NCBI GenBank assembly: GCA_039714535.1
Contig: JBDLJC010000001.1
Coordinates: 73,059-137,058 of the forward strand
Direction: 5' to 3'
DNA: 64,000 nt
Origin: Thermodesulfobacteriota bacterium
GTDB lineage: Bacteria; Desulfobacterota; Desulfobulbia; Desulfobulbales; JAGXFP01
Shown here: piece by piece, positions 41,070 through 49,211 of the stretch
How positions within the stretch are numbered: the first letter of the stretch is position 1
Layout of the letters: every line of letters begins with the position of its first letter
Notes under the pieces: generated by a model
The model's input: the letters and a program-made list of their open reading frames with translations, nothing else
Database searches by the model: none
What the model was told of the DNA's origin: nothing
Position numbers and translations under genes: made by a program

Positions 41070-41447
41070 TTAGGTTCGTGAGCCACTATAGCTCATTTCA
41101 ATTAGGGTGTAATAAAATCCTTTCACTGCGGCCACCGAGAAAAATACCATGATAGCCATGGCCTGCATGTCCACTGATTGCGGTACTAGCAACTTTGCGT
41201 CTTTGATAAGCATGATCAAAACGGCCACATTGACCATGGTTCCAATGCCGAAATGTACCAGCATCTTGGGCAAAAGGTAAAATTGATACATTATCCAGGT
41301 GACAAGGTCGGCAAGGACAAGGCAGTTTAGAAAGCTTTGCATAGCCACGGAAAGATGTAGTCCGTCAAAATAAAAAACCCACGCCCACAGGCCATAAAAG
41401 ACAGAGCGCACTAAGATGTTGGCATTATGTGTGAGTATGGAGTCCAT
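41070..41447 (-). CDS. Small integral membrane protein (about 4 TM), unknown function
   Basis: 125 aa, hydrophobic and AT-rich. One unit of the cassette-like array. Confidence 0.5.
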   Translation of the reverse strand: MDSILTHNANILVRSVFYGLWAWVFYFDGLHLSVAMQSFLNCLVLADLVTWIMYQFYLLPKMLVHFGIGTMVNVAVLIMLIKDAKLLVPQSVDMQAMAIMVFFSVAAVKGFYYTLIEMSYSGSRT

Positions 41448-41471
41448 AATTGATCATATGTTTAAAGATTT

Positions 41472-41548
41472 GGGTGAGGGGCGCGCCCAAAACTTGCCCG
41501 ATTAGGCCGCCACGCTTCTTCGCGTCCCTCGCTACCCTTTGCTTAGAT
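41472..41548 (-). repeat. attC-like imperfect palindrome (unit 5)
   Basis: In gene direction GAGGG(A)CGCG pairs with CGCGCCCCTC. It shares an identical 19-bp box acttgcccgattaggccgc (41492..41510) with 42035..42053. The R boxes are non-canonical. Confidence 0.4.
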
Positions 41549-41986
41549 TTATTTAGGGCCAATCGAAACATTTTCACTTTTTGGAAGGTTGTTATTTAAT
41601 AGATCTATTAATTTTAACGAGCTTCCTGAGAATCGGCGACTAGAAATAGATTTGGTCACTCTATCTTTTGTTATCGCGACAGAAATTGTTGCTTTGTGTT
41701 CTGGCCACACAGCATAGTCTTCTGTTGCCATAACCTCTTTAAAAACCTTATGAGCAAGGGTCTTTATTTCAATGATTATTGTTGGGGCCAGATCAATAGC
41801 TTTTTCAGTAATTTCTGTTGGACTGGCATAACGTAGAATTGTAAATTGCCCATCTTGATGGATATTAAACGATGTTGTGCCAGTGAGGCCAACAGTTGGC
41901 TTTAAAGTGATAGAAATAGATTCGCTGGAAGCAAAGCAGGTGGCCGAAAAGAATAGAAACCAAAAAATTGATATTATAATTTTCAT
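41549..41986 (-). CDS. Small secreted protein, unknown function
   Basis: The start is trimmed to ATG 41986 (RBS gaggt). Signal peptide MKIIISIFWFLFFSATCFA. Confidence 0.5.
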   Translation of the reverse strand: MKIIISIFWFLFFSATCFASSESISITLKPTVGLTGTTSFNIHQDGQFTILRYASPTEITEKAIDLAPTIIIEIKTLAHKVFKEVMATEDYAVWPEHKATISVAITKDRVTKSISSRRFSGSSLKLIDLLNNNLPKSENVSIGPK

Positions 41987-42013
41987 GTTGTTACCTCGAA
42001 AATCTAACGATTT

Positions 42014-42088
42014 GCATAACCAGCGGGCCACAGGACTTGCCCGATTAGGCCGCATTCGTTCACACGGTCTGATATGCGCTGGTTCGGA
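42014..42088 (-). repeat. attC-like site (unit 4)
   Basis: Gene direction reads TCCGAAC-CAGCG...GGCCTAATCGGGCAAGT...CGCTG-GTTATGC. The terminal AACCAGCG and CGCTGGTT pair. It lies 28 nt upstream of the next ATG. Confidence 0.5.
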
Positions 42089-42163
42089 GATTTTTGTCGT
42101 TTGGTTTATTGGTTAGTTAACCTGATTTATTTTTGGGAGACAGGAGCTGGCTACGGGCTGGTT

Positions 42164-42538
42164 TCAGGAGTTATTTTCAAGCAGTCTGATTTCCTCTTCT
42201 AATTTGTCGATCTTTGCCTGTATTTCAGGCCGCGGATCCTCTTCGAGAATGAATTCATTCGGCAGCCCTGTTATCTCGCATATTCCAACTTCTGATTCCA
42301 TTTGGGCAATAGTTTCATCTATCTTCTCGAGTGTATCCACATACACCTGCTGTTCTGCCTTTTTGTTGCTTAACAATTCTTTAATGTCTTGCTCGCTTTT
42401 AAATGACAGCTCTATGGTTCTCTGGAAAGACTTCCATTGGTCGAAGAACTGCCCAGCATATACTTGGGATTCTGGTTGTGTCGGCCATAGAGAAAAAACC
42501 GACAGTACAGTAAAAAGTATGATAAAAAAATATTTCAT
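42164..42538 (-). CDS. Small secreted coiled-coil protein, unknown function
   Basis: Signal peptide MKYFFIILFTVLSVFS and E/K/Q-rich heptad-like sequence. Confidence 0.5.
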   Translation of the reverse strand: MKYFFIILFTVLSVFSLWPTQPESQVYAGQFFDQWKSFQRTIELSFKSEQDIKELLSNKKAEQQVYVDTLEKIDETIAQMESEVGICEITGLPNEFILEEDPRPEIQAKIDKLEEEIRLLENNS

Positions 42539-42603
42539 AGCTACACACCCCTTTGAGGTTAATAATACAGTATAAACTGTCTACCTAAGTCGAGATTTTT
42601 ATA

Positions 42604-42629
42604 CGGCCTGGCTAATGCGCTGGTTATGC
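42604..42629 (-). repeat. Orphan half of an attC-like site
   Basis: GCATAACCAGCGCATTAGCCAGGCCG starts 3 nt after the stop at 42632. It resembles the 5' half of the 42014..42088 site. I found no matching 3' half. Confidence 0.35.
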
Positions 42630-42631
42630 AT

Positions 42632-43255
42632 TTATTTCGTAGTTTTGGGGATCATGTTGGTGAAATTATTGTCAGATAATATCTTTTTGATCACTTCGTT
42701 TATAGAGGTCAAGATTACTTTTGTCATAATTGTGTCACTAGGGCCAGTGTAGGTTCGCTTAATGTTTTTTGAGTAATAAGGCCCTATTTTTATCGACTTC
42801 CCATTTGTGTTTTTAATTTCTATTTCAATCTGAACTTCGCCGTAAACATCCCAGTATAATGCGGTAACATCTGTGCCAATCCAAAAATCTAATATTTTAC
42901 CTGTTATGGTAAGATTCTCGTCGATGTTATTAGTGCTATACCCATTATTTGTTAATTCGCGACGGAACTCATTATGGATTATTTCTGCAATAGGCCGCTC
43001 AACGGACACATCATTTACTGGCAAACCTAAACCAGCCTGTTTGCCTCCAATCAGTTCGGGTGCTTTATTCTTGGTACGAATATCTTGAAACATTTCGAGT
43101 GTGATATTGGATGTGATTTGGTTAGTGCTTGTCGTACTTGGTGCTAGACTATCTTCGAATTTCAATGTAGATGGCCCTAAAGAAAGGCAACCTGAGGTAG
43201 AAAGAAGCAGGGCTATTATTAAACAGTAAAAATATTTGGTGTTAAAAAATTTCAT
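42632..43255 (-). CDS. Lipoprotein (YajG-like?), unknown function
   Basis: Lipobox LLSTSGC. 207 aa. The family guess is weak. Confidence 0.55.
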   Translation of the reverse strand: MKFFNTKYFYCLIIALLLSTSGCLSLGPSTLKFEDSLAPSTTSTNQITSNITLEMFQDIRTKNKAPELIGGKQAGLGLPVNDVSVERPIAEIIHNEFRRELTNNGYSTNNIDENLTITGKILDFWIGTDVTALYWDVYGEVQIEIEIKNTNGKSIKIGPYYSKNIKRTYTGPSDTIMTKVILTSINEVIKKILSDNNFTNMIPKTTK

Positions 43256-43279
43256 TTTTTCTCCATTTATTAGTGATTT

Positions 43280-43717
43280 TTAATCATGTTTATTGAATAT
43301 GCTGTTGATAACCTCATTAACCATTTCTGCTGGTGTTTTTCTGGTAAGGGAAGTGTGGTATGAATTGCCAGATGCTAAAGGAAAATTGTTTTTTGGGTCT
43401 CTTATTTTTATCGTAAGTTCTATCATATACATGGTTAAATCCCAAATCCATTTGTCTTTATACGTGACTATAGCATCAACCCCTTCTGGTGTTTCAACTC
43501 CAGAAGTTACTTGATATCCAATTTCCTTAAGCTTATTGGCTATTAATATATTTATTTCTCTGCCATCTGGTGCAAATTTAGTTACATGAATTGATTTGAT
43601 GCTGGCAAGATTGGCATTTGGGGCAATGTTAGCTGTTGCACGATTAAAAGCACAACCTGAGGCTAGTATAGTGATGATAAGTAACAGGCTTATATTTAGG
43701 AGTAACTTATATTTCAT
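43280..43717 (-). CDS. Lipoprotein, unknown function
   Basis: Lipobox ILASGC. 145 aa. Sits 24 bp upstream of the next lipoprotein gene, so both appear to belong to the same unit. Confidence 0.55.
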   Translation of the reverse strand: MKYKLLLNISLLLIITILASGCAFNRATANIAPNANLASIKSIHVTKFAPDGREINILIANKLKEIGYQVTSGVETPEGVDAIVTYKDKWIWDLTMYMIELTIKIRDPKNNFPLASGNSYHTSLTRKTPAEMVNEVINSIFNKHD

Positions 43718-43881: not shown

Positions 43882-45528
43882 CTACAAGTACCATTCTGTC
43901 TTTATTTCACCAATATCTGCTTCCTTCCATTCTTTTTTCCAAAGCTCCCAAAACGGAATATCATTTGACGAAGGTGGCAAAACACATTTATCTATTTTTA
44001 CTAATGATGGTAGGACGATAGATTCTCCAACCAATAATGCTTCTCCGGCTTGCAATGAAGGGAGTTTATCCGTTAAGTTTCCAAGTGTGTCAGGCAATAA
44101 TCTTTTCACATAATTTTGATCAATTGGGTTTGTTAAACGCATTGCAATAAAACTATTACATTGCGAAAATATTGTTTCGGATATCTCAGAAGGTCTTTGG
44201 CTAGACAATAAGAGAGTTACTCCATACTTACGCCCTTCTTTTGCTATTCGCTCAATTGAATTTTTAGACGCCCGATATTTAACTAAATCACTTCTAGGGA
44301 CATATTTGTGAGCTTCCTCATAAACAAGTAAAAATGGAGTATCATTGTTTATTTTTTCTTCTGGATCTTTTTTTGCTCTCAATCTTTTATAGAAATATCC
44401 GTACTCAAATATAATCCTTGATATCAAAGAAACGGTAATACTAAGAACATCGAATGGGACTCCACTTAAATCCAATATAGTTACATTACTTTTTGCACCA
44501 TCTTTATTTCCGATTAATTGCTTAATTGTATCCTCAAATGAGATGTTTTTACTTTCTTCTCCAAGCAAGAAGTCTAATCTTTTGTCATTTAGCTTATTTT
44601 CTAATCGACTGACGAAGTTGGTTAATTTCCCAAACAATGTCCCTTGCTTTGTTGTGCCAGCCTTAGCTCCATCAATCATCTCTGTATTCTTGCTGTTTGC
44701 AAAATTTAATACTTCTTTAATGTCAAACATTAATGGGGAGTCATAATGGATTTTTGCTTTATCAGTTTCACTGCCGGTAAATTTGGCAATTCTATCTGCA
44801 ACTACTGCTTCTTTAAAAACATTACGTTGATTATGGTCATTTGCTTCTGTGTCAATGAAGAGTTCTTCTAGTTCTTCACTTGTTAGAAGCCAGTATGGCA
44901 ATCGTAAATCTGCTATTCCAAGGTTGATAGATTCAGGAAATGCTGATTTGTATTCTGAATGAATATCAAAGATAATGACATGAGAGTTATTTAATGCAAA
45001 AGTCCCGTCTTTGCCCTCTACAGCTTGTTGAATTATTTTTGTCACAGTATGTGATTTTCCTGATCCCGTTGATCCAATGACCGCGATATGTTTATTGAAA
45101 AAATTGTTTCCATTTACGGGTACTCGAATGTTAGAGTTTGACGATAAAGATGAGAATGTAAATTTTTCTTCGTTAACTATTGATTCTGCGTAAATGGCCA
45201 AAATTTCTTCTTCTTTTGCGGGTTCAACTTTTTTCGGTGGGATTGCAATTGTGTCTCCGCCTCGTTGAAATTTATTATCTTTGACAACTCCAAGAGGATT
45301 GGCCTCAATGATGTACCTACGCTTTGCGACACCTTCTTCTGCTACTTCTATCAGAAAATTATCAATTATTGCGATAAGAGCGATATCGTCATCGTCAGAA
45401 ATACGTATGTAAGATCCGATCTTTAAGGTCTCAGCTGCTGATTGAATAAATTCGTCATCAACAGCTATTTTGACTTTATTGGGATACACAGAGATTACTT
45501 CCGCATTCACCTTGTCTTCGTCTGCCAT
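43882..45528 (-). CDS. herA: HerA-family ATPase (DUF87/HerA-FtsK fold), partner of DUF4297
   Basis: 548 aa. N-terminal HAS-barrel-like region and Walker A VIGSTGSGKSH. The start overlaps the stop of the upstream gene (TGATG). Confidence 0.85.
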   Translation of the reverse strand: MADEDKVNAEVISVYPNKVKIAVDDEFIQSAAETLKIGSYIRISDDDDIALIAIIDNFLIEVAEEGVAKRRYIIEANPLGVVKDNKFQRGGDTIAIPPKKVEPAKEEEILAIYAESIVNEEKFTFSSLSSNSNIRVPVNGNNFFNKHIAVIGSTGSGKSHTVTKIIQQAVEGKDGTFALNNSHVIIFDIHSEYKSAFPESINLGIADLRLPYWLLTSEELEELFIDTEANDHNQRNVFKEAVVADRIAKFTGSETDKAKIHYDSPLMFDIKEVLNFANSKNTEMIDGAKAGTTKQGTLFGKLTNFVSRLENKLNDKRLDFLLGEESKNISFEDTIKQLIGNKDGAKSNVTILDLSGVPFDVLSITVSLISRIIFEYGYFYKRLRAKKDPEEKINNDTPFLLVYEEAHKYVPRSDLVKYRASKNSIERIAKEGRKYGVTLLLSSQRPSEISETIFSQCNSFIAMRLTNPIDQNYVKRLLPDTLGNLTDKLPSLQAGEALLVGESIVLPSLVKIDKCVLPPSSNDIPFWELWKKEWKEADIGEIKTEWYL

Positions 45529-46736
45529 CAGATGATCTCCTTTATATTTCCTAAATCATTAATCTGGATAACAACACTTTTCACATCCACGTTGGGTATT
45601 GAAAGATAGGGTTTATCAAAATAGAATTGATAAACTTCTTTTGTCTTAGTGACATGGGTCAATGTATCAGTTATGTGAGTTTCTTTTGTTAATATTTTTG
45701 CTTTAATATTGTTACTGCTGTCTGCTTTTGTGGCAATTGATTTTGCTGAAAAGTCTGCCCCAGAAAAGGGGAAACCGTCTCTAAACTCAAAGCCTTCATC
45801 GTACAATTGTTTTTTCAATTCTAACAATCTACCGTCAGATATATTATTAAAATGAATATATGGACAATACGTTTGAGGTTCCCTCTTTTTTAGGTTTGAG
45901 TACCGTTTTGAAATTATAAATACTAAATCTTTTAATTCGCCGATGGCATAGTTTGCTGGCAAGTCGATTAAAAAGAAACGCTCAAAAGGTCGCTTGTTAA
46001 GTCTTCTGAAATATCTGTCCTTTAACTCTTTATGGTATTTTGCTTTTCCTTTTAGTTCAAAAAACCATTTATTGAAAAGGACAGTTTTGCGATTAATTCT
46101 TTTTAAAAAATCCTGCTTTGAAATTTTTCTGTCGTTAATATTGTTTTCAATTGCAATTTTCCGTATTTCATTCAAAGCATTATTATAGAAATAGTATTCA
46201 GCATCAAAAAGATCGCAGGAAAATGTGCCTTTTAAAAGGCTTATGATATCATCGAATTGTTCAAGATATTCTTTTGCATTAATATCGATTGATAATGTAT
46301 CTAAAAAGTTCTGTAACTCTCTATCATTAAGTCCCAAATCCTCATGATGTTTTTTTTGCGTCCCATCTACTTTGTAGCTTAAAAATTTATCTTTCAAGAA
46401 ATTTACATCTATTGGCAAAGTAAGCTTGTTATGCCCGGACTTGTAATGCCCATATAGGTGATATTTAATTTGAGGTTTATGTTCTGATTTAGCTTTCCCA
46501 AAATGAGAAAGCATAAATCTGATTGGTTTAGAAATTACAGAGTGATTATATTCCGTTTTTGAATAATACTTACACTGTATTGCGATTGTTTCCAAAGATG
46601 TTGCAATGTCAATATCTTCAACACCTTCAACTACAATCTCGTCTGTATCATTAGAGAGACTCAATAATTGTAGGATTGAGTAATCGAACTGATAGAAATA
46701 TCCTTTAATTGTGTCTGTTGCACTTCTATTGCTCAT
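45528..46736 (-). CDS. DUF4297 (Cap4-like PD-(D/E)xK nuclease) domain protein
   Basis: The N-terminus TIKGYFYQFDYSILQLL...VEGVEDIDI...IQCKY matches the DUF4297 pattern (GxxYQ, E.xED, QxK). 402 aa. Confidence 0.75.
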   Translation of the reverse strand: MSNRSATDTIKGYFYQFDYSILQLLSLSNDTDEIVVEGVEDIDIATSLETIAIQCKYYSKTEYNHSVISKPIRFMLSHFGKAKSEHKPQIKYHLYGHYKSGHNKLTLPIDVNFLKDKFLSYKVDGTQKKHHEDLGLNDRELQNFLDTLSIDINAKEYLEQFDDIISLLKGTFSCDLFDAEYYFYNNALNEIRKIAIENNINDRKISKQDFLKRINRKTVLFNKWFFELKGKAKYHKELKDRYFRRLNKRPFERFFLIDLPANYAIGELKDLVFIISKRYSNLKKREPQTYCPYIHFNNISDGRLLELKKQLYDEGFEFRDGFPFSGADFSAKSIATKADSSNNIKAKILTKETHITDTLTHVTKTKEVYQFYFDKPYLSIPNVDVKSVVIQINDLGNIKEII

Positions 46737-46774: not shown

Positions 46775-46865
46775 ACATAACGCTATGCATCACCAGTGGC
46801 GCCCATTGACTTGCCGCGTCAGCGCCGCAGACGTTCCCGCCATCTGGTGAATGAAATTGTTAAAT
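46775..46865 (-). repeat. attC-like site (unit 1)
   Basis: Gene direction reads ATTTAAC-(9 nt)-CACCAG[A]TGGCG ...35 nt... CGCCACTGGTG-(9 nt)-GTTATGT. The first box fits RYYYAAC. The inner stem has one bulged base. It starts 3 nt after the stop at 46868. Confidence 0.5.
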
Positions 46866-46867
46866 GA

Positions 46868-47998
46868 TTATTTATCTTTTAGAACTTTTAAATCAGAAAC
46901 AGCCTCGAGCAACCAAACAGAGCCTTTCCGCTCTAAAAAACCTTGAACTTCCAACAACTCTCTAGATTTATGGGCCTCAATAGCCTGAAGATATTGACTT
47001 ATCCCTAGCTCAATTCTCACATCGATATTTCCATATTCCTCATGATAGTGTTTAAGAATAATAGTTCTTTTGCCATCCTCACTTGTTGGATCATTGCTAT
47101 GCAGGTTTACAACCTTTCCAATAATTAGTGTCTTTTCCGGCGATACTTCTTTCAGCTTTTCTGCTGCATATTTCAAATATGAAATTTCCTCATCACCAAA
47201 CGTTTTTGATTTGAAATCTGACACATCTTCAGTTGGAGGTAAATTGGTGGCCCATTGAACAGACAATTCTACTGGTATTTCAAGAGCCTCTCCCATTTCA
47301 ACGATGGCTTCACACATTCTTGAGTTGAACCCAGAACTAAAATTGGCGACCAAAATTTCTGGGTCTTTCTTGGATACAGCTTCAGTTGTGTTCTTTATGC
47401 CTCGCACAATCCTCTCAATAACTTTCCTTTCAATAGGAGGCGAAAATAAGCCTTGTTGTTTGAATTCTTCAATTACTGGTGTTTCAATAGAGAAGCCAAA
47501 ACTGCCCTGGAAGGTGTGGCCAAACCTTATTTTCTCGGCCATCTGATAGCCAACAGTCGAAGGGTAATTATGATGAGGTAGTGCATTCTTTTCAGAACAT
47601 GCGCTATATACAAAAAGATTGCGAATACCGTTCACTTCTTTTTTGGCAAGTTCTAGAGGGATGCTAGACAGGGACTTGTCGTTAGGTGAGATCTTTATAA
47701 AAAAATTATCCCTATTAAAACATTTCAAAAGACCAGCTAATATTGACGGTTCTATTTCGTAAAGATTAGATATTAATAAAAAAACGTCGTACATTCTTTT
47801 GTCAAAATCTTCAAAGTTGTCAGAGCGTGGAAGAAACAATTCAAGAGGAACACCCGCATCATTTTTAGGACCGTGAAAAACTGATAATTTCCTATTCCGA
47901 TGAACTATTTCTTTCCAATCTTTTGATTTTAAAAATGACTTTAAATCAAACAGTGAAATTCCTCTGATAAGCTCAAAAGGGGATTTTATTTCTGTCAT
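46868..47998 (-). CDS. 376-aa protein with no domain I recognise, translationally coupled to the DUF4365-like gene
   Basis: Long AT-rich ORF. ATGA overlap with the upstream gene. No TM segment, signal peptide or nucleotide-binding motif is recognisable. Confidence 0.6.
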   Translation of the reverse strand: MTEIKSPFELIRGISLFDLKSFLKSKDWKEIVHRNRKLSVFHGPKNDAGVPLELFLPRSDNFEDFDKRMYDVFLLISNLYEIEPSILAGLLKCFNRDNFFIKISPNDKSLSSIPLELAKKEVNGIRNLFVYSACSEKNALPHHNYPSTVGYQMAEKIRFGHTFQGSFGFSIETPVIEEFKQQGLFSPPIERKVIERIVRGIKNTTEAVSKKDPEILVANFSSGFNSRMCEAIVEMGEALEIPVELSVQWATNLPPTEDVSDFKSKTFGDEEISYLKYAAEKLKEVSPEKTLIIGKVVNLHSNDPTSEDGKRTIILKHYHEEYGNIDVRIELGISQYLQAIEAHKSRELLEVQGFLERKGSVWLLEAVSDLKVLKDK

Positions 47999-48507
47999 GA
48001 CAAATCCCCACTGCTAACTTTTGTGATTAAATTCTTTATTGTGCTTGGCGTTAGAAGTTGTTCCCGAGGTATTTTGACCCTGACAGTAGATGTATTTTTT
48101 GTGGGTTCGCCACTTACTGAGAAATAATAGCAACATTTTTTTATCGTCAACGATTCTTCAGATACACAAATCCATTCTTTAATATCTTTTGGAAGGCACA
48201 TAACCACAAGAAAGCAGGGAATAGTAGAATTGTTTCTACGATACAAAAGCTTGTTGTATACGTCTGCATCTAGGTCATAAATTACATGGTTTTCATCCAC
48301 ACCCAAATTTATTGTCGCTTTAAGTTGGCAGTCAAATATGCCACCCATATCCATTCGTTTTCCATCAATGGAATCGACTCGCCGAACTGTAAGGTCAACA
48401 CCATAGTCATGATTGACTATGTCATATGTTGCCCCAGCTCTCGAGACAATGGCGCTAACCAAAGACACGCTCATGGATTCTTCGATAGATTGGATGGGAG
48501 TGGTCAT
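47995..48507 (-). CDS. DUF4365-like PD-(D/E)xK (restriction-endonuclease-fold) protein
   Basis: 170 aa. The layout SIEES...HDYGVDLTV...FDCQLKAT fits the E / D.G(I/V)D / Q.K motif arrangement of DUF4365. Confidence 0.6.
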   Translation of the reverse strand: MTTPIQSIEESMSVSLVSAIVSRAGATYDIVNHDYGVDLTVRRVDSIDGKRMDMGGIFDCQLKATINLGVDENHVIYDLDADVYNKLLYRRNNSTIPCFLVVMCLPKDIKEWICVSEESLTIKKCCYYFSVSGEPTKNTSTVRVKIPREQLLTPSTIKNLITKVSSGDLS

Positions 48508-48869: not shown

Positions 48870-49064
48870 TCAAAACCAGCCGCTTTGCCGGCACCACTCT
48901 TCCTTGATCTCCTCAATCTGGTTCCGGTAGGGTTCCACCGGACTTTCCTGGCCGCATCCCGTGCAGACTACTGTGGCATTGTGTCAGCGGCCCCGGAGGA
49001 AGGCGGTCCCGCCGCAGAACAGGCAGGTGAGTTGCAGGTCGTTATCGGGCTCTGTTGTATTCAA
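48870..49064 (-). other. Small zinc-ribbon-like ORF with an in-frame TGA (48984..48986)
   Basis: Hand translation gives (L)NTTEPDNDLQLTCLFCGGTAFLRGR-TGA-HNATVVCTGCGQESPVEPYRNQIEEIKEEWCRQSGWF*. Two CxxC knuckles flank the TGA. The only candidate start is a weak TTG with a poor RBS. Confidence 0.3.
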
Positions 49065-49086: not shown

Positions 49087-49125
49087 AAAAAAAAGGGTTT
49101 CCGATTAATAACCGGAAACCCTTTT
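49087..49125 (-). terminator. Rho-independent terminator after tRNA-His
   Basis: The minus strand reads GGGTTTCCGG-loop-CGGAAACCC followed by T8. Confidence 0.75.
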
Positions 49126-49133
49126 GAATTTCG

Positions 49134-49211
49134 TGGGGTGAGTGATGGGATTTGAACCCACGGCCTCCTGGGCCACAACCAGGTGCTCTAACCAACTGAG
49201 CTACACCCACC
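49134..49211 (-). tRNA. tRNA-His (GTG anticodon)
   Basis: The reverse complement folds as a cloverleaf with G-1 and acceptor GTGGGTG/CACTCAC. The anticodon arm is CCTGG-TTGTGGC-CCAGG, the T-arm is GTGGG-TTCAAAT-CCCAT, and CCA is encoded. Confidence 0.9.

Follow-up and report, generated by a model that had tools for sequence, protein, structure and literature searches.

A new copy of the candidate defense family PDC-M02 in a Thermodesulfobacteriota genome: a predicted DREN-type nuclease and its partner protein

The PDC-M02 pair and its described relatives

Nuclease domains of the DUF4365, or DREN, type serve as effectors in several described conflict systems, and a free-standing member of this group, in the company of a family-specific partner protein, is the subject of this report. 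The two genes, here termed A and B, lie in a 64,000-nt stretch (hereafter the window; all coordinates are positions in it) of contig JBDLJC010000001.1, from a metagenome-assembled genome (MAG) of a Thermodesulfobacteriota bacterium related to the cable bacteria. Among the described effectors, that of SPARDA combines a DREN domain, of the PD-(D/E)xK fold and with a DxGxD..QxK active site, with APAZ in a single polypeptide, adjacent to a short Argonaute (MID-PIWI). In isolation, the SPARDA DREN domain is an inactive monomer; its active state is a tetramer within a filament. Formation of the filament is driven by the sensor and joins four DREN domains, leading to non-specific DNA cutting and cell death (bioRxiv 10.1101/2025.04.08.647717). 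In TmuRE, a SPARDA nuclease, Q62 and K64 were named as potential active-site residues, and the Q62A/K64A double mutant is inactive (PMC10810196). DUF4365 also forms the toxic module of EAT16, a toxin injected by an extracellular contractile injection system (eCIS): single mutations show that, of the four residues conserved in the DxGxD..QxK motif, three are each essential for its toxicity, and a DUF4365 protein expressed in Escherichia coli is toxic (PMC11297309). Divona, from a Vibrio integron cassette, uses the same nuclease domain as an effector module, embedded in a single fused protein together with a RecB/Mrr-like nuclease and crr6. Neither EAT16 nor Divona has a partner of the type encoded by gene B.

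The arrangement that does have such a partner is PDC-M02. It is listed as cassette CAS_00021 (FAM_01850>>FAM_00842, count 894) in Table S8 of Payne et al. 2024, with the wording "Assign as candidate PDC-M02" (bioRxiv 10.1101/2024.01.29.577857). That study proposed 145 phage defense candidates by "guilt-by-embedding" in BREX, DISARM and type I restriction-modification (RM) loci, and describes them as untested. Searched against PADLOC-DB v2.0.0, the product of gene A matches PDC-M02A (PDLC04290) with an E-value of 4.6e-58, residues 5-166 aligning to profile positions 4-165 of 170, and it matches all 25 PDC-M02A models. The product of gene B matches PDC-M02B (PDLC04333) with an E-value of 2.5e-111, residues 13-373 aligning to positions 12-377 of the 379-position profile, and three fragments of B each match PDC-M02B models only. 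The sole PADLOC match of A outside the PDC models, to a prokaryotic Argonaute-associated restriction endonuclease, is marginal (E 0.036) and falls in the nuclease part. The two genes, their order, their common strand and their adjacency are those of PDC-M02, and the only distinction of this copy is its host. At the level of sequence, the locus is a new copy of this catalogued candidate family, and not an unknown system; it belongs to PDC-M02 and to DUF4365/DREN, and lacks the defining features of SPARDA, Avs, integron cassettes and classical type II toxin-antitoxin (TA) pairs. The preliminary description of this DNA, made from the letters alone, had found no named system to which the pair could be matched, a statement that the strong PADLOC matches of both proteins overturn. 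It had also named prior annotation as part of a named system as an outcome that would tell against its own reading; what exists is a weak form of such annotation, because PDC-M02 is a candidate, not a validated system.

The two open reading frames (ORFs) were found as first described, A followed by B on the minus strand with an ATGA overlap of the A stop and the B start, an arrangement predicted to couple their translation. A Shine-Dalgarno-like GGGGA precedes the B start by about 9 nt. The hidden Markov model (HMM) E-values, together with the conserved synteny of homologs, identify A and B as real genes as opposed to chance ORFs. Among 80 genome loci with a B relative, A immediately precedes B on the same strand in 73; of the remaining seven, four are at contig edges and three look decayed. 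The 4-nt overlap itself recurs in 47 of the 73 orthologous pairs, and 64 of them have their two genes within +/-40 nt of each other. The pair is found in Proteobacteria, Chloroflexota, Chlorobiota, Bacillota, Cyanobacteriota, Planctomycetota, Verrucomicrobiota, Acidobacteriota and Saccharimonadales. It is also present in 16 of 17 loci from IMG/VR, so that the conserved synteny for which the preliminary description had asked holds in genomes and viral contigs alike; a viral-contig scan seeded with the A alignment found nothing, its patterns being too narrow. Homologs of B occur on 16 plasmid records, in three of which the match coincides with or adjoins an annotated DUF4365 gene. Among temperate phages, the pair is carried by Leptospira phage LE1 (LE1-0038/0037), and it makes up genes 1-2 at the left end of Mycobacterium abscessus prophages. 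Prophage ends are a typical place for prophage-encoded defense or exclusion genes. In Mycobacterium phage prophi102-2 (L087:398-2160), where the pair sits at the extreme left end, WXG-motif (ESX-type) proteins are encoded a few genes further on.

Across many phyla, plasmids and temperate phages, these comparisons indicate, A and B are inherited together. In 63 of 67 pairs A is the more conserved protein (median identity 36.7%, against 29.7% for B), and the identities of the two correlate (rho 0.44 over the 67 pairs). The slower divergence of A and the correlated identities fit co-inheritance with a faster-evolving partner, as in a sensor-effector pair.

The pair also appears to be autonomous. 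In Candidatus Electrothrix gigas, whose B is 87% identical, it stands between nif-related genes and TA genes of the HipA-like, PIN/PhD and HI1420 types, and in a relative with 79% identity it adjoins MNT/HEPN genes and a 1383-aa AAA_11/AAA_12 helicase with a DUF559 protein. Neither of these two close relatives, inspected gene by gene, has beside the pair the DUF4297-HerA genes that flank it in the window, and neither DUF4297 nor HerA adjoins it in any of four more distant homolog loci that were looked up; nor do they rank with the PADLOC families most often matched by 124 neighbor proteins from 31 loci. Because close relatives carry the pair elsewhere and without DUF4297-HerA, it is by this comparison a two-gene unit that moves independently of its neighbors. 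On either side of the two ORFs, nucleotide similarity to the relatives stops after a further 40 nt or so, which points to just these two genes as the mobile unit. Defense-like neighbors do occur at some loci: an HmaB/PglX-like methylase with a HEC-01 ATPase, type IIG RM genes and methyltransferases, Septu PtuA, and TIR, GIY-YIG and FRG genes. The "embedded" context behind the PDC-M02 designation is exemplified by a Chlorobiaceae MAG (L031:7438-9113), in which the pair belongs to one same-strand block, with two unknown proteins of 940 and 319 aa upstream and, downstream, the HmaB/PglX-like methylase (1179 aa) and the HEC-01 ABC ATPase (E 8e-205).

Nuclease and partner protein

The product of gene A matches the Pfam family DUF4365 (PF14280) with an E-value of 9.2e-21 and a score of 74.8 bits, above the gathering score of 24.3; the match spans positions 1-137 of the 139-position profile. 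The active-site layout is intact (E10, D34-Y-G-V-D38 and Q61-L-K63), and it is retained among 68 A orthologs, in which E10 is conserved in 88%, D34 in 97%, D38 in 100%, Q61 in 99% and K63 in 100%. Q61 and K63 are equivalent to Q62 and K64 of TmuRE. Congruent with the family assignment, an AlphaFold2 (AF2) model of A, with a predicted local distance difference test (pLDDT) score of 85.6, finds SPARDA DREN-APAZ chains as its top 14 matches in a Foldseek search of the PDB (entries 9qcc, 9vx6, 9jt2, 9jsz, 9qbp and 9qbq; E 2.8e-8 to 6.6e-5; query-normalized TM-score, TMq, 0.54-0.65). Next come archaeal Hjc resolvases (E 2e-4 to 1e-2) and EcoRV. A phmmer search of PDB sequences with A returned chance matches only, so the relation of A to SPARDA is visible at the level of Pfam and of fold alone. 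Both the E / DxGxD / QxK layout and the DUF4365 nuclease fold that had been read from the 170-aa ORF are thereby borne out. By profile and by predicted fold, A is a free-standing PD-(D/E)xK nuclease of the DREN (DUF4365) type whose active-site residues are intact and whose activity is predicted. Its closest characterized relative, as judged from the model and not named in the preliminary description, is the DREN domain of SPARDA.

Gene B has no match in Pfam, NCBIfam or PDB sequence searches. Its product has no Walker A motif, and with a highest 19-residue hydropathy of 1.36 it has no predicted transmembrane segment, which agrees with the earlier remark that neither an NTPase motif nor a transmembrane segment could be recognized in it. 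A profile search of a library of 1.84 billion representative proteins nevertheless places it in a large and uniform family: 4659 cluster representatives match at E<=1e-3, of which 1086 reach E<=1e-30, and the best 150 listed are mostly 370-400 aa long. The AF2 model of B (pLDDT 87.1; predicted TM-score, pTM, 0.81) has three parts, the limits of which are given in Table 1. Conservation was read from alignments of 29 and 38 homologs. In the N-terminal part, a small alpha/beta domain, the conserved residues are W28, L56-P57, D64 and D97. The central domain carries most of the near-invariant residues: YSACSE136, F159-G-H-T-F-x-G-S-F-G-F169, P188..R191..E-R196..R-G200, N225-x-x-M-C229 and W249. This pattern of near-invariant residues suggests that the central domain holds a functional site, a candidate for ligand binding, catalysis or an interface. 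For these first two parts, about 280 residues in all, there is no structural match among the listed Foldseek PDB matches.

The third, C-terminal part of B is modeled as a five-strand barrel with strands at residues 285-300, 312-319, 323-330, 348-358 and 361-373 and a helix at 333-344; in the model, the position of this helix between strands 3 and 4 fits an OB fold. All 50 listed Foldseek PDB matches of B are OB folds, each covering about 90-120 residues, from SSB, RPA32/14, PriB, Stn1-Ten1, RMI and the OB domain of PolC (E 6e-3 to 7e-2, probability 0.9-1.0, target-normalized TM-score, TMt, 0.45-0.55), and comparison with viral predicted structures adds viral SSB and DnaE_OBF matches. A weak-match Pfam scan of 38 diverse B homologs gave one match to tRNA_anti-codon, itself an OB fold (E 1.2e-3), and no recurrent family. 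The barrel is slightly acidic, with 14 lysines and arginines against 16 aspartates and glutamates. On the strength of the model, the C-terminal barrel is OB-fold-like, with putative nucleic-acid binding.

Viral models in BFVD offer a few comparisons for B. The best match there is the phage LE1 homolog (E 1.9e-29). Two more remote fold matches, both over the full length, are a 270-aa Myoviridae protein (E 1.7e-9) and the metagenomic phage protein A0A8S5QA00, labeled "DUF6575 domain-containing" (E 1.8e-8). DUF6575 is among the domains of the validated E. coli phage defense (PD) systems (Vassallo et al. 2022). Judged from predicted structures, the likeness of B to DUF6575 is probably a distant fold relation only. 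PD-T4-10 is of similar size, but the HHpred analysis in that paper found no DUF4365, and in PADLOC the fragments of B match PDC-M02B alone. The idea of B as an APAZ or Argonaute analog was rejected: no such chain is among the 50 listed Foldseek matches, though the searched library contains them.

A candidate defense module and its rivals

The favored reading is that the PDC-M02 locus is a candidate anti-phage or anti-plasmid module in which B would be the sensor and regulator and A the effector nuclease; we put its probability at roughly 0.55. In an uninfected cell, A would be held monomeric or inactive. On meeting its trigger, B would assemble A into an active oligomer, which would degrade DNA non-specifically and so stop the invader and probably the cell too, as in abortive infection. 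The OB-like barrel might bind the trigger, in the form of single-stranded nucleic acid or a phage protein; alternatively, the trigger might be a ligand for the conserved central domain. This activation-by-assembly model is taken from SPARDA, with which the pair shares its type of effector and, by analogy, likely its logic: a nuclease inactive alone and switched on by sensor-driven assembly. The likeness has clear limits. In SPARDA the nuclease is fused to APAZ, whereas A is a free protein consisting of the DUF4365 domain only; SPARDA has an adjacent short Argonaute, whereas none is encoded at this locus, there being no further gene between A and its neighbors; and B has neither fold nor sequence similarity to APAZ or MID-PIWI. 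Since there is no Argonaute gene and B is unlike APAZ and MID-PIWI, sensing by the pair would not be guide-RNA based.

The preliminary description had interpreted the two genes as a minimal sensor-plus-nuclease defense system or a toxin-type pair. Its observations are confirmed overall, and this interpretation is partly supported. An intact DREN nuclease, the coupled synteny, the presence on plasmids and phages, and the RM, Hma and HEC-01 neighbors at some loci all fit it; the part that did not stand is the claim that the system lacks a name. The analogy it drew to Avs/AVAST fails, because there is no NTPase in the pair: Avs proteins are STAND NTPases with a Walker A motif, whereas neither A nor B has one, and no STAND or Avs model matched.

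Several points weigh against the favored reading. Literature searches found no paper naming PDC-M02 and no experiment on it, and a later study testing eight PADLOC candidates did not have PDC-M02 among them; nor did any characterization of the A-B pair come to light under DUF4365, under DREN combined with OB-fold or under two-gene systems with an OB-fold. The SPARDA analogy covers the effector only, because B has no resemblance to APAZ or Argonaute. The OB-fold assignment of B, drawn from a model, rests on weak Foldseek E-values, the best being 6e-3. The barrel is, moreover, slightly acidic, and RPA32/14, Stn1-Ten1 and RMI1/2, among the OB folds matched, serve in protein contacts, not in DNA binding; given this acidity and these protein-binding relatives, nucleic-acid sensing by B is a guess. 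Finally, many copies of the pair stand alone among housekeeping genes.

A bolder version of the favored reading, which we entertain only tentatively, is that PDC-M02 is an Argonaute-independent DREN system, that is, a SPARDA-type collateral DNase placed under a different sensor. B could then consist of an OB-like barrel joined to a central domain that, in the model, has no solved or annotated relative, and E136, H161, T162, S166, R191, R196, N225, C229 and W249 could form its ligand-binding or catalytic site. If true, DREN would be a portable effector, switched on by induced oligomerization under several unrelated sensors, and B would bring to bacterial immunity a new class of sensor that thousands of genomes, plasmids and prophages carry. 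PADLOC, run routinely, would label the locus as PDC-M02 beside DUF4297-HerA. The label marks a real gap: the family is widespread (the 894 cassettes and 4659 cluster representatives given above), it resides on plasmids and temperate phages, and B is without a known fold over three quarters of its length. The combination of a DREN nuclease with a non-Argonaute, OB-barrel-containing partner makes for a concrete and cheaply testable hypothesis.

The rival that survives best, and that we consider unlikely, is a TA or addiction module in which A would be a DNase toxin and B its stoichiometric inhibitor, so that the pair would stabilize its carrier elements and phage defense would be secondary. The tight coupling of A and B would suit such a module, as would their residence on plasmids and prophages, the toxicity of a DUF4365 protein in E. 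coli, and neighbors that include the TA genes PIN/PhD, HipA-like, Gp49/HI1420 and MazE. B itself is the main obstacle. Where a type II pair is expected to have a small DNA-binding antitoxin, B is a large protein of 376 aa, encoded downstream, whose central domain is strongly conserved and whose C-terminal part is an OB-like barrel, and it has no antitoxin-type DNA-binding fold, there being no helix-turn-helix (HTH), ribbon-helix-helix (RHH) or AbrB match. The TA-type models of PADLOC did not match either. Moreover, the SPARDA DREN domain on its own is a monomer without activity, so that it needs an activator, not an inhibitor.

Less probable again is a recombination or repair accessory of mobile elements, in which A would be an Hjc-type structure-specific endonuclease and B a partner that binds single-stranded DNA and targets it. 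The archaeal Holliday-junction resolvases that rank second among the fold matches of A lend themselves to this proposal, as do the resemblance of the B barrel to the OB folds of SSB, RPA, PriB and RMI and the carriage of the pair by temperate phages; yet among the matches of A the resolvases are outranked by the collateral DNase domains of SPARDA. The distribution is patchy, with accessory positions at a prophage end or inside RM or Hma-type loci, blocks of replication or recombination genes did not contain the pair, and PDC-M02 was catalogued for its embedding in BREX, DISARM or type I RM systems. The weakest rival, a four-gene system with DUF4297-HerA or an integron-type cassette bounded by attC, can draw on four genes that share a strand, a spacer of 131 bp only and a bulged palindrome in that spacer with RYYYAAC-like and GTTRRRY-like heptamers, but it is largely refuted and highly improbable in view of the relatives that lack DUF4297 and HerA next to the pair (the two closest and the four more distant loci alike) and of a palindrome that is unconserved, folds no better than shuffled sequence and comes with no integrase among the ORFs scanned, no second site and no tRNA-derived direct repeat.

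Surroundings in the window

The pair and the two genes that follow it are all encoded on the minus strand (Table 1). As the preliminary description had it, A-B lies directly upstream of DUF4297-HerA, DUF4297 beginning 131 bp downstream, and within an AT-rich island, an observation that holds up: the G+C content is 37.5% for the pair and 33.6% for DUF4297-HerA, against about 50% in the flanks. DUF4297-HerA (Gao_Her_DUF) resembles PDC-M02 in that it, too, has a PD-(D/E)xK-type nuclease controlled by an assembling partner, and it shares the island. Its families are, however, unrelated, namely DUF4297 (Cap4-like) and the HerA ATPase, whereas PDC-M02 has no NTPase and occurs without it elsewhere. 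DUF4297-HerA, recognized by its PADLOC matches, is a separate, neighboring defense system.

Table 1. Coordinates of the PDC-M02 genes, their parts and neighboring features in the 64,000-nt window
Feature	Position	Strand	Basis or remark
HerA	43882..45528	-	PADLOC, E 2.5e-275
DUF4297	45528..46736	-	PADLOC, E 4.3e-164
Imperfect inverted repeat TCACCAGaTGGCG...CGCCAcTGGTGA	46790..46850	.	131-bp spacer between B and DUF4297
Gene B, PADLOC PDC-M02B, family-specific partner protein	46868..47998	-	ORF, 376 aa
B residues 283-376, five-strand OB-fold-like barrel	46871..47152	-	AF2 model and Foldseek
B residues 106-282, central domain	47153..47683	-	alignments
B residues 1-105, small alpha/beta N-terminal domain	47684..47998	-	AF2 secondary structure
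ATGA overlap, A stop / B start	47995..47998	-	read from sequence
Gene A, PADLOC PDC-M02A, DUF4365/DREN-type PD-(D/E)xK nuclease (predicted)	47995..48507	-	ORF, 170 aa
Q61-L-K63 codons of A, QxK half of the active site	48319..48327	-	sequence
D34-Y-G-V-D38 codons of A, DxGxD half of the DUF4365 active-site motif	48394..48408	-	sequence
Terminator hairpin, 16 pairs and T-run, directly 3' of tRNA-His	49091-49125		terminator scan
tRNA-His, upstream of the island	49134..49210	-	ARAGORN, Rfam

The inverted repeat in the spacer forms a 12-pair stem with one bulged base. The preliminary description had called it attC-like; the palindrome itself is there, whereas the attC-like label is not supported. 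Its folding is ordinary when set against shuffled sequences (z -1.4 and -1.1 in two runs, 21 of 200 shuffles folding as well in the first), it is not conserved downstream of B in the relatives, no second palindrome of its type was found, and a Pfam scan of the ten larger ORFs between 35.5 and 50 kb shows no integrase. An integron gene cassette would be expected to show attC, IntI and a cassette array, in contrast to the one imperfect palindrome seen here. As a candidate attC the repeat was set aside as unsupported on these counts, without scoring by an attC covariance model, and it is probably not part of the A-B module. The candidate reading of the island as an integrative element at tRNA-His found no support: no copy of the tRNA-His 3' end, and hence no tRNA-derived direct repeat, occurs elsewhere in the window, and there is no integrase in the scanned ORFs.

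Upstream of A, about 600 bp without a convincing gene lead to tRNA-His, and Rfam finds tRNA only. The hairpin at the 3' end of the tRNA gene is a textbook intrinsic terminator, which parts tRNA-His from the island. Between tRNA-His and gene A, at 48870-49064 on the minus strand, is a small CxxC...CxxC zinc-ribbon-like ORF (LNTTEPDNDLQLTCLFCGGTAFLRGR*HNATVVCTGCGQESPVEPYRNQIEEIKEEWCRQSGWF*) interrupted by an in-frame TGA. Its Pfam matches are weak (Zn_Ribbon_TF, E 1e-3; the Lar restriction-alleviation family, E 0.03), and it could be a pseudogene, contain a selenocysteine codon or have arisen by chance.

Beyond HerA, the low-G+C region continues with five small minus-strand ORFs at 41070-43717, one of which matches Pfam Lipoprotein_16 (E 3e-9). 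None of them has a PADLOC match, so the defense content of the island comes down to four genes, A, B, DUF4297 and HerA. The same region holds a perfect 19-nt direct repeat, ACTTGCCCGATTAGGCCGC, at 41492-41510 and 42035-42053, its copies 543 bp apart; the first lies just downstream of a 168-aa ORF (41549..42055) and the second at the 5' end of that ORF.

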